This document shows positions 17,688 to 52,607 of a stretch of DNA of 55,141 nucleotides, one piece after another. The stretch lies in assembly GCF_006345805.1 (NCBI RefSeq), contig NW_021833787.1, positions 1 through 55,141 of the forward strand, in the 5' to 3' direction. Made by a program: the position numbers and the translations under genes. Each line of letters begins with the position of its first letter. Position 1 is the stretch's first letter. Below the pieces are notes generated by a model. That model searched no databases and had not been told where the DNA came from. It worked only from the letters and a program-made list of their open reading frames with translations. The DNA is from Octopus sinensis (Eukaryota).

Positions 17688-17833
17688 TTCTCTCCTTGGT
17701 TTTTCTGTGTACCTTTCTGTAGAAGAGCGTAGGCTCGAAACGTAAAAGACTTTTTCTATTCCTGAGCGTTATACTAATACATCTGGTTGTTTTGTACACC
17801 ACCTGTATTCGTCTTGTTTTTTTCGTAAACTCT

Positions 17834-25040: not shown

Positions 25041-25041
<1 letters not shown>

Positions 25042-26929
25042 CACTATCACCGCTCCTCTTCTGCTTAGCCTTAATACCTCTCTCAAAACTGCTCAATGAT
25101 GCGCAGTACGGATATAAAATGTTTGATAAAAATATAAATCATCTCATTTACATGGATGATTTAAAGCTCTTTGCAAAAAATGACCAACAACTCAATGGCT
25201 TACTAGCGATTGTCAAACAATTCAGTGATGACATCAGAATGCAATTTGGCCTCGATAAATGCGCAAAAGCTACCTTTATCAAAGGAAAAATGGCAGAAAC
25301 ATCTAACGTTAACCTTGACCAGCAGAATGTCATAAAAGAATTAGACCCAGCAGAGAACTACAAGTATCTAGGGGTAATTGAAGGAGAAGGAATAAGGCAT
25401 TCAGAGATGAAGGAAAGGATCAGGGGAATGCTATCGCAGAGTAAGAGCAATACTCAAGACAGAGCTGAATGCGAGAAACAGGATCGAAGCGATCAATGCA
25501 TTAGCCATACCAGTCGTGACTTACAGTTTCAGTATCGTTAACTGGTCAATTACTGAATATGTAATCTTGACAGAAAAATACGAAAACTGTTGACAATGCA
25601 TAGAATGCACCACCCTAAGGCAGATACAGAACGACTTTATCTGCCAAGAAAAGAGGGAGGCCGTGGACTTTTACAACTGGCAATAACAATGAAGATTGCT
25701 ACAATTGGCCTAGACACCTACCTGAAAAACTCTGAGGACTGGATGTTAAAACTTGTCTCAAAACATGAAAACAAGAAAGCATCATACTCAGTAACAAAAC
25801 AGGCAAAGGAATATCTAAGTGAATTCCGAATACAACAAATTTCGGAATTAGAGATAGACATACAAGAAACAGGCACAGAAAAAGCTAAGCGCATGAAAAC
25901 CCGTGCTAAATCTGCGGCCTTAGATATTCTGAATGATAAATGGCAAGAAAAACCTCTCTATAGCAAATACCCAAAGAGAGTAAATAATGCAGATGTTGAC
26001 AAAGCCCTGACCCATCAATGGCTAATGGCCTCTGGCTTAAAATCTGAAACAGAGGGGTTTATCATAGCAGCTCAAGATCAATGCCTACCAACAAGAAACT
26101 ACCAGGCCAACATATTAAAGATCAGAAGCATCCAACGTGTCGTGTATGCAAGCAACAAAATGAAACCATTGACCATGTGGTCTCCAAGTGCAGTCTTCTA
26201 GCGCCTACAGAATATCTCAACAGGCACGATAGAGCTGCACAATATATTCACTGGGTAATCTGTAAAAACCTGGATTTGCCCCATGAAAAAAACTGGTGGG
26301 AACACAAACCACCCCCGGTGCTTGAAAATGACCACATCTCACTCCTCTGGAACTTCGCCATTCAAACTGACAGAAAGATAGATGCAAATAGGCCAGACAT
26401 TATATTGAAAGACTTCAAACAAAGAACATGCCTCCTCATTGATATGACTGTCCCAATATATAAACGTATCTGTCCCAATATATAAACGTATCTGTCAAGA
26501 CCTACCAAAAACTGAGCAAATATAAAGATCTTGAAATAGAAATCAGCAAAATGTGGAAGCTGAAGACTAAAACATTACCTGTTGTCATAGGTGCCCTGGG
26601 AATGATAGCAAAAGGGGCAGATAGCTACCTAACTCAGATACCAGGAAACCCCAAAATGGCAGAAATTCAAAAGATAGTGCTCATGGGAACTGCTCATATC
26701 CTACGCAAAATACTTTCTATGTAATCTCAAGGTTTAAAACATAATTTTCGGTTTAAAAAAAAAAAAAAAAAAAAATTTTTAGACATTCATTAGTACAACA
26801 CCCCACCCCCCAAATATATGGCACACTAGGCATAACAACAACATGAACTTCCAGCCCTGTTGTCTCTTGAGGTCTCTGGGTGAGACTTGGAGCCAACTTG
26901 TACAAATATAAAGCAAAAGTCAAACATAG
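25041..26929 (+). mobile_element. 5'-truncated R4/Dong-clade non-LTR retrotransposon (RT C-half, CCHC finger, restriction-like endonuclease), frameshifted
   Basis: SLSPLLFCLALIPL, HLIYMDDLKLFA, YKYLGV, LYLPRKEGGRGL, CRVC...ETIDHVVSKC, RHD, NRPDII, KYKDL, VVIGALG, TAHILRKILSM* (stop 26722-26724); (TAA)n on both sides. Confidence 0.93.
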
Positions 26930-50878: not shown

Positions 50879-51685
50879 TTACACGTTGATGTGGTGTAAG
50901 AGCCGTGTTAGACAGTCCCTGCCACAGCGAAAGCCATGCTGATTTGCATTCAGGAGTTTGTGGGTCTCCAGGAAGTCAGCTATCCTTGATCTTACTACTC
51001 TTTCAAACACTTTAATGATGTGGGAGGTGAGTGAGATTGGACGATAGTTGACTGCGAAGGAGCTGTTTCCCTGATGAAAACCGGAAAAACAGATTAGGAG
51101 CTGTTTCGGTATATAACCTGAGTCTAATGAATTCTCCAGAAGTTGGTCAGAGGGACTGTAAGTTGCTGTCTACATTCCTTCAGGTGACTAGCGAGGAATC
51201 TATCAGGGCCTACAGTAGAATAGTATTTGACCTTATTTATGGCTGCTGTGATGTCAGAGGCGGTGAAGGTTATGTCCAAGATTTTATGTTGGGAATCAAC
51301 TTCGTTGGCTTCTCTTACGTCAATATCAGTGGGATCACTAAAGACAGAGCAGTATTGTTTCTGCAGTATTTCTGCCATTTCTTTAGCATCGTGTTGGGGA
51401 ATGCCGTTATCATCAATCAATGGCCCAATGGGTGAGACACCTGTTCTATTCTTATTTGCATAAGAATAGAATACTTTTGGGTTCTGTTTGATATTTTTTA
51501 TTACCCACTGTTCCTCCGCAGCTCTTTGGTTTTCAATGGAGGTTTCCATGTCGGTCTGCAGATTTTCCGGTTTCGGCCTTTCATTGTTTTGAATGTAGAT
51601 GTTGCATGTTGGAGTATTTTAATTGTTTGTTTTTTTATTGAGTTTTCTGATACGCCTGGTGAATATCTTTTACATTTTAGGGAGC
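50879..51685 (-). mobile_element. CR1/L2-type LINE ORF2 internal fragment (tether plus RT domains 0-2)
   Basis: KQNPKVFYSYAN...AEILQKQYCSVF...GPD (ORF 51124-51549), then after a frameshift NYRPISLTSHIIKVFERVV...NANQHGFRCGRDCLT. Confidence 0.9.
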
Positions 51686-51722: not shown

Positions 51723-51946
51723 ATCTATACATATGTATGTATATATATATATATATATAAAAGTAGATAAATGGTACAACAAGGCACCAGTATTTACTGG
51801 AAAATAGCAATCGTAAGAAATACGACGCTATTGTATAGCTTCACTGCGTATACACTAGCAAAGATGCGTGTGTGCTACAAACACGAAAAAAATTTGTCTT
51901 ACCTCTAGGAAGAACATCTGATAAATGGACAACCTAGGATCGGATA

Positions 51947-52017
51947 ATGCAGGACCGGTTTCTGACTCTTCAAATACGTTTGACAACGTAAATTTGATTA
52001 GTCTTCATCAGCTGCAT
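51947..52017 (-). ncRNA. Type I hammerhead ribozyme, intact core, extended stem II
   Basis: AUGCAG CUGAUGA A GACU-[UCAAAU..ACGUU/AACGU.AUUUGA]-AGUC A GAAA C CG G UC|CUGCAU: 6-bp stem I, palindromic ACCGGU stem III, GUC site; stem I can extend via CUAGG/CCUAG (52025-52021 / 51938-51934). Confidence 0.8.
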
Positions 52018-52607
52018 ATACCTAGAAAAGATTTCAAATGTTGCTGCATCTATGGCAGAATACTCGTCTGAACGCCAAAACGTTAACAGAACGAGAACAG
52101 TGAAATATATATATATACTTACTATAAACATATAAGTATGCACAAACATTTATGTATATTTACATATATCTGTATAGACACATATATCTCTGCATATATA
52201 TATACATATATTTACATATACGAATCGCGTCACGTTCGTCTTCGTGTGCATATTCCAGCATGAGAAGACGTATGCGACATCGTCCGGCTGGAATTTAGTG
52301 CTTTAATGCATCATAAATACGAAAAAAAAAAGCATAAAATATTTACTCGTATTATTGCTACCGACGCAACCTTAAGTAGCTGCTATAAAACACACACAAA
52401 CAGCAAGACACAAACACACACGCACACAAATACACACGCACACACACACACATCCAAACAGGCACACACATACAGAGGTGTGTTTTTATGACAAATTAGG
52501 TTATTATGGTCAGTTCCGTTTCCACACTAGAGTAAACAAACATTGGCAATATGCGAAATTAAACACTTACACACACACACACACACACACACATACACAC
52601 TCAATAT

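Follow-up and report, generated by a model that had tools for sequence, protein, structure and literature searches.

A type I hammerhead motif in a 5'-truncated repeat of the retrozyme type (428-nt unit) in Octopus sinensis

The hammerhead motif and the repeat copy that carries it

The DNA analysed here (the window) is a stretch of 55,141 nucleotides from Octopus sinensis (assembly GCF_006345805.1, contig NW_021833787.1, positions 1 to 55,141), which carries towards its end, on the minus strand, a type I hammerhead ribozyme (HHR) motif (Table 1). A preliminary description of this DNA listed a 6-bp stem I, its extension past an internal loop to a distal CUAGG/CCUAG stem, an intact CUGAUGA and GAAA, and a canonical GUC site, and all of these are present, with GAAA at 51962-51959 and C17 at 51953, so that the predicted cut falls between 51953 and 51952. 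In the hammerhead numbering as used in PMC4209133, the type I features C3-A9, G12-A14, A15.1-U16.1 and an NUH triplet are found in the motif. The innermost pair of the distal stem is a G-C private to the window copy (1 of 161 copies with letters there), G-U being found in 156 of the 161.

Table 1. Features of the repeat copy and its hammerhead motif, in window coordinates
Feature	Position	Strand	Remarks
5'-truncated 355-nt copy of a 428-nt retrozyme-type unit	51750..52104	-	unit 277-428, then 1-202
Type I hammerhead ribozyme motif	51934..52025	-	fold, descriptor, covariance model
Stem I, 5' strand AUGCAG	52012..52017	-	partner of 51952-51947; 165-169 of 170 copies have a standard pair at each position
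Catalytic core C3-A9, CUGAUGA	52005..52011	-	every position kept in 167-170 of 170 copies (sample partly picked for an intact core)
Stem II arm, 42 nt	51963..52004	-	A52004·A51963 facing at 10.1/11.1, its base
G12-A14, palindromic ACCGGU (predicted dimer-forming stem III) and C17	51953..51962	-	
Stem I, 3' strand CUGCAU	51947..51952	-	pairs with 52017-52012
Predicted hairpin just before the fixed 3' end of the family	51762..51798	-	folds
Fixed 3' end, TTATAT (about 51755), followed by a (TA)n tract	51730..51760	-	
Flank rich in (TA)n, next to the truncated 5' end	52105..52120	-	

The motif had also been called near-textbook, a term that does not fit, as two adenines face each other at 10.1/11.1 where a G-C pair is usual, and as the Rfam model Hammerhead_HH9 gives 23.3 bits (E = 0.008 in a 2-kb search) against a cut-off of 52. 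Because A52004 faces A51963, stem II begins one step inside the core, and a G-C pair sits one step further in. From the A·A outward, the arm consists of 4 bp, a 2x2 internal loop, 5 bp, a UU bulge, 6 bp and a 4-nt loop. The internal loop occupies the position of loop 2, 4-5 bp from the core; a contact between loop 1 and loop 2 is among the type I features. The ACCGGU stem III that had been proposed stands in part: the palindrome is there (51959-51954), while the stem itself is only 1-2 bp long and is predicted to be unformed in a monomer. No Rfam family reaches its gathering score anywhere in the window. The motif is beyond chance; the fold of its 92 nt has z = -3.4, with none of 200 shuffles equally good, and a strict hammerhead descriptor found 0 matches in 30 block-shuffled windows.

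The motif was first thought to stand alone, outside any recognised repeat, a view overturned by its position within a 355-nt copy of a 428-nt, circularly permuted repeat (unit positions are numbered from the cleavage site). A pattern with both core halves has 112 exact matches in the genome and a pattern just 3' of the cut has 147, the reversed-pattern control giving 0 in either case. From a DNA search of the genome, which returned 1,136 candidates, 40 were scored, and 39 of these are other places with 92-95% identity along 180-191 of 192 nt, which refutes a single copy. Ninety-eight distinct 3'-of-cut matches were examined; 81 span the ribozyme, 65 of the 81 have an intact core, and 25 match the pattern with both core halves too. 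By a hand mark-recapture estimate there are about 360 ribozyme-bearing copies in the genome, probably a lower bound.

The window copy is 91.4% (52104-51953) and 93.6% (51952-51750) identical by blastn to a natural unit of this family (L090). It differs by 3.0% from the column majority of its subfamily, which is more diverged than the subfamily with a paired 10.1/11.1. As it is shorter than the unit and lacks a partner hammerhead, it most probably represents a passive insertion in decay. The (TA)n tract at its 3' end is the likely insertion target, and the adjacent hairpin, which folds in prediction, may be a candidate start signal for reverse transcription.

Of the two origins initially suggested for the motif, a Penelope or retrozyme terminus agrees with the Penelope-derived retrozyme favoured here, whereas a retained intronic ribozyme does not, the motif being multi-copy and under the HH9 cut-off. 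A conserved intronic hammerhead of the HH9/HH10 type was rejected for the same reason, that the motif is not a single locus. We consider it extremely unlikely that the motif is a domesticated, host-selected intronic ribozyme like those of vertebrates: HH9 (RF02275) is indeed the best Rfam hammerhead match, and the type I topology is shared over the whole model (1-77 of 77), yet the score is far too low, and a mobile repeat with hundreds of copies contrasts with a conserved single locus. Furthermore, the private changes of the window copy are ordinary in number (the 3.0% given above), its stem I is the weakest of nine copies, and no host-gene exon is evident in the list of window ORFs, which are ORFs and not gene models.

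Other repeats lie in the same window. Broken LINE-type reverse transcriptase fragments occur at 25041-26485 (+), with an RVT_1 match for 25041-25538, and at 51124-51618 (-); the latter was rejected as part of the element, as microsatellites lie between the two and other copies lack it. A minimal hammerhead of the type found in Penelope-like elements (PLEs), belonging to another very common repeat, is located at 47600-47573 (-) and has an extra A after A9, a 4-bp stem II, an ACGU palindrome and a GUA site; decayed relatives were seen near 17725 (+), 34011 (+) and 5691 (-).

The 428-nt unit and the anatomy of its insertions

The length of the unit is set by a natural head-to-tail dimer (L089/L090), in which both cores are intact. 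True dimers are rare, this being the only one verified for both cores; three further loci (L134, L135 and L167) span two hammerheads as judged by length. A triple array (L028/L029, G000:C4:114663315-114666505) was rejected as the repeat unit, since its period of about 525 nt takes in about 200 nt of TA-rich flank and so reflects a later local tandem duplication. The unit contains no open frame across the six frames and, when folded as a circle, has z = -4.9 (0 of 60 shuffles as good). Within the size range of non-LTR retrozymes (about 150-450 bp), it has one type I HHR, no protein and no LTR, and every testable feature of this class is present in the 428-nt family at family level. From a sequencing run labelled as a second organism (X8), one contig shows 26 differences in an alignment covering 230 nt of the element, which hints modestly that a related organism may have the family too. 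Contigs of four putative RNA runs overlap the L090 element in all four cases, broadly in three, and are uninformative on transcription, strand and circles.

Insertions were surveyed at 109 distinct loci, chosen for carrying the ribozyme, after 8 duplicate loci had been removed. The 3' end lies at unit positions 195-205 in 82 of them, at 245-272 in 10 and elsewhere in 17, the fixed 3' end thus being 200 nt beyond the cut site. A 3' anchor was found in 62 of the 109, comprising 44 TA-rich ends, 9 tails (an optional sequence of about 65 nt) and 9 others, mostly other microsatellites. The 5' ends are scattered over the whole unit. Raw length exceeds 428 nt in 48 copies, 35 are clearly over-unit, and in 23 loci an inverted piece adjoins the 5' end. 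The copies hence bear the marks of Penelope insertion, namely 5' truncation, inverted 5' pieces, an optional tail and a microsatellite target. For PLEs, 5' truncation, partial tandems, an inverted 5' copy, an optional tail and a bias to (TA)n are described in PMC8557442; according to PMC11167929, the PLE protein nicks AT-rich DNA, and reverse transcription begins at two internal RNA sites, resulting in the tail.

An RT/EN ORF abuts the unit at none of the 109 loci, and the unit occurs in none of 60 GIY-YIG loci (30 from a first set and 30 of a second PLE family). These two results indicate that the 428-nt family is non-autonomous, and an autonomous PLE was rejected on the same grounds. PLE ORF pieces are found near four of the 109 loci (L022, L075, L141 and L172), none abutting, and were rejected as partners, being at least 670 nt away, in mixed orientation and from different families. 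The unit might instead be the solo pseudo-LTR of an autonomous PLE whose ORF-bearing copies escaped sampling, which would account for PLE-type ends, tail and inversions; PLE copies are mostly 5'-truncated, and 109 loci of an estimated 360 or so were examined closely. However, no ORF separates the repeats, the unit being joined directly to itself (L090, and 35 copies clearly over-unit), and the two zero counts above speak against this explanation as well, so that we regard it as quite improbable.

A candidate for the mobilising element exists in the same genome. This PLE family (L049, L178-L207 and L281) encodes RT and GIY-YIG domains (in L281) with a cysteine-rich linker of the Neptune/Nematis type, its copies end in TTATAT followed by (TA)n with an optional tail of about 60 nt (of 18 classed, 11 have the tail and 7 end at TA), and it has GAAACCGGTC in common with the 428-nt unit. 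Beyond this sequence and the short TTATAT end, the unit has no similarity to the PLE families sampled; as longer homology was not found among these, the family is only a candidate mobiliser, to which we infer a link.

The same PLE family (L049, L178-L207 and L281-L284) carries a hammerhead-like motif with the core AUGAAUA, where A3-U8 replaces C3-G8. It lies about 290-350 nt after the end of the GIY-YIG ORF (in L178-L207), has a stem II of 2-3 bp, a stem I of 5-6 bp and the same GAAACCGGUC, and occurs in 21 of 30 loci; not being of the CUGANGA form, it was recognised by eye and then counted. A natural U3-A8 is reported in the hammerhead and PLE literature, and within the limited part of that literature covered here the A3-U8 form was not met.

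Stem II, stem III and the predicted need for dimers

In the fold of the isolated 92-mer, stem I has P = 1.0, the core CUG pairs with the CGG of the palindrome (P = 0.95), and A15.1-U16.1 has P of about 0. In the 355-nt window copy, P of stem I is about 0.17, the lowest among nine copies tested, the other eight ranging from 0.48 to 1.0. For the natural L090 dimer, the unconstrained minimum free energy (MFE) structure is a double hammerhead with a 6-bp ACCGGU stem III (-138.8 kcal/mol), whereas two monomers reach -133.0 kcal/mol when stem III is left free and -121.0 kcal/mol when A15.1-U16.1 is closed; two window 92-mers co-fold via the palindrome (-54.5 vs -48.6). The window hammerhead is thus predicted to cut only as a dimer, a single copy staying off. 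A short or weak palindromic helix III is reported to need dimers (PMC4209133, PMC7229834): axolotl retrozyme monomers were cleaved to 6-22% and dimers much more (PMC7229834). Counting against the proposed activity, only one of nine Xenopus retrozyme dimers was cleaved (10.64898/2026.07.22.740005). The window copy had been put forward as the strongest single candidate for activity. With hundreds of copies in the genome, an A·A base, no partner, and stem I so weakly formed in its 355-nt context, it is instead a poor one.

The A·A at the base of stem II is not peculiar to the window. Among 81 copies, a set chosen outside the core, 10.1/11.1 is A·A in 46, A-U in 26, G·U in 2 and of other kinds in 7; the states commonly met are A·A, A-U, G·U and U·U, and G10.1-C11.1 does not belong to them. 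Across 170 spans the main forms swap, so that there is either an A·A base with a U-A fifth pair, or an A-U or G·U base with an A·A fifth, and a 4-bp helix is retained in both. In a tree of 105 of 109 rows (4 poorly aligned ones dropped; midpoint root; bootstrap not settled), 51 of the 54 paired copies fall into one supported group (97/88). Divergence among paired copies is 0.062, as against 0.088 for A·A copies, which suggests that A·A is the older state.

A second, more diverged hammerhead family (L091-L095, L097-L102, L104-L106, L109, L110, L113, L114, L116 and L120) has the same A·A-framed stem II, in many cases with an internal loop of GA/AG, and its copies run into (TA)n some 170-200 nt beyond the cut. 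It is unalignable to the 428-nt family. In a sample of 20 rows, with two loci counted on both strands, an A precedes G12 in 20 and follows A9 in 18. When these rows are aligned with the window motif (21 rows), 19 have a G-C pair inside the As, and the next pair inward changes on both sides (CG 9, GC 7, AU 2). As the arrangement recurs in a second family with two-sided changes in a pair, we do not interpret the A·A stem II as decay. A base pair at 10.1/11.1 is not strictly required, since U·U occurs there in nature (PMC3088659, PMC7229834), and hammerheads with a single extra nucleotide following A9 have been described as well (PMC4209133). In the literature covered, no natural hammerhead with A·A at 10.1/11.1 was found, and A·A is at most a candidate novelty. 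We offer only tentatively, as possible rather than probable, the idea of a natural, dimer-active subtype occurring in two retrozyme families, with an A·A-framed stem II and an internal loop in place of loop 2, where the ends of the copies would be the footprint of a Penelope RT copying a retrozyme circle. Through the common ACCGGU palindrome, a retrozyme RNA might also pair with a PLE RNA into a mixed double hammerhead.

A third family, retrozyme-like, young (90-99% alike) and of about 360 nt (L103, L107, L108, L111, L112, L115 and L117-L119), combines a 4-bp stem II of canonical form with a TTATAT end and a tail, and its copies include true tandems and inverted pairs. As a candidate active ribozyme, it ranks above the window motif.

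The same Penelope-derived repeat could carry the hammerhead merely as a passenger that no longer cuts in vivo, over-unit copies then stemming from read-through of tandem loci and not from circles. In line with this, an excess of conservation in the hammerhead over the rest of the unit is not significant (shared variants in 2 of 32 versus 43 of 354 columns, Fisher p = 0.56; private changes 2.5% versus 3.0%), and four different states at 10.1/11.1 have founded subfamilies. Nor do 5' ends peak at the cut site, where about 3 true ends were found among 8 of 98 rows within 0-5 nt, near background, in an ungapped walk in which indels mimic ends. Also, HHR cleavage of a PLE RNA required protein and yet was dispensable for insertion of the PAc element in vitro (PMC11167929). 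Against a mere passenger, the 11 core positions show no shared variant, the 4-bp helix of stem II is kept while its register slides between subfamilies, the natural dimer takes the double hammerhead as its MFE structure, and the pair inside the A·A changes on both sides in the second family. Weighing these points, we think a passenger role unlikely.

Relation to known retrozymes and Penelope-like elements

The closest parallels are metazoan non-LTR retrozymes (Cervera & de la Peña 2020, PMC7229834), such as those of mussel (350-390 bp) and axolotl (Rtz331 and Rtz353), with which the 428-nt family shares a short, AT-rich, ORF-less sequence with one type I HHR, a weak palindromic helix III, a dimer-favoured fold, a highly self-paired predicted circle and the presence of PLEs in the genome. 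It differs from them in consisting mostly of dispersed copies of 0.5-1.7 units instead of long tandem arrays, in having A·A at the base of helix II (U·U in axolotl Amex2) and an internal loop, within a stem II arm of 42 nt, in place of a short loop 2, and in that its circle is a predicted one.

In its insertions, the family resembles PLEs with a C-terminal GIY-YIG (Neptune/Nematis; the Poseidon element PAc; PMC11167929, PMC8557442), with 5' truncation, partial tandems, an inverted 5' piece, an optional tail, a fixed internal 3' end, (TA)n targets and an HHR within the repeat. Unlike these, it has no RT/EN ORF, its tail is about 65 nt long versus 30-40, and extended homology to the PLE families sampled is lacking. 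The unpaired nucleotide after A9, the long helix II and the palindromic 15.2-16.2 recall the minimal hammerheads of PLEs (PMC4209133), in contrast to which the window motif has a second unpaired A before G12 and, as in canonical type I hammerheads, a full 6-bp stem I, an internal loop and a distal stem.

We favour as the probable explanation that the window motif is a type I hammerhead in a 5'-truncated copy of a protein-free, 428-nt non-LTR retrozyme, which was likely copied into (TA)n by a Penelope-like RT-endonuclease and is predicted to cut as a dimer only. The 428-nt family would then represent a new family of animal non-LTR retrozymes, non-autonomous Penelope derivatives with predicted cleavage; retrozymes have been described as PLE derivatives (10.64898/2026.07.22.740005).

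In the process that we envisage, the two ACCGGU palindromes of a tandem transcript would pair into a 6-bp stem III, giving the predicted double hammerhead, and multimeric transcripts of tandem loci would be cut to 428-nt monomers able to circularise, as work on retrozymes and PLEs implies. A PLE protein may then nick AT-rich DNA and prime reverse transcription internally, at the main end or at the tail end, extension proceeding for a variable distance and in some cases making more than a full turn of the unit. The window copy would be one product of such PLE reverse transcription.

The ends of the insertions fit the two-site internal priming seen in vitro for a Penelope element (PMC11167929), and their pattern bears on how retrozymes move, a question described as open in 10.64898/2026.07.22.740005. 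Moreover, the natural variants at 10.1/11.1 (A·A, A-U, G·U and U·U) occur in one backbone and so allow a simple comparison of cleavage.
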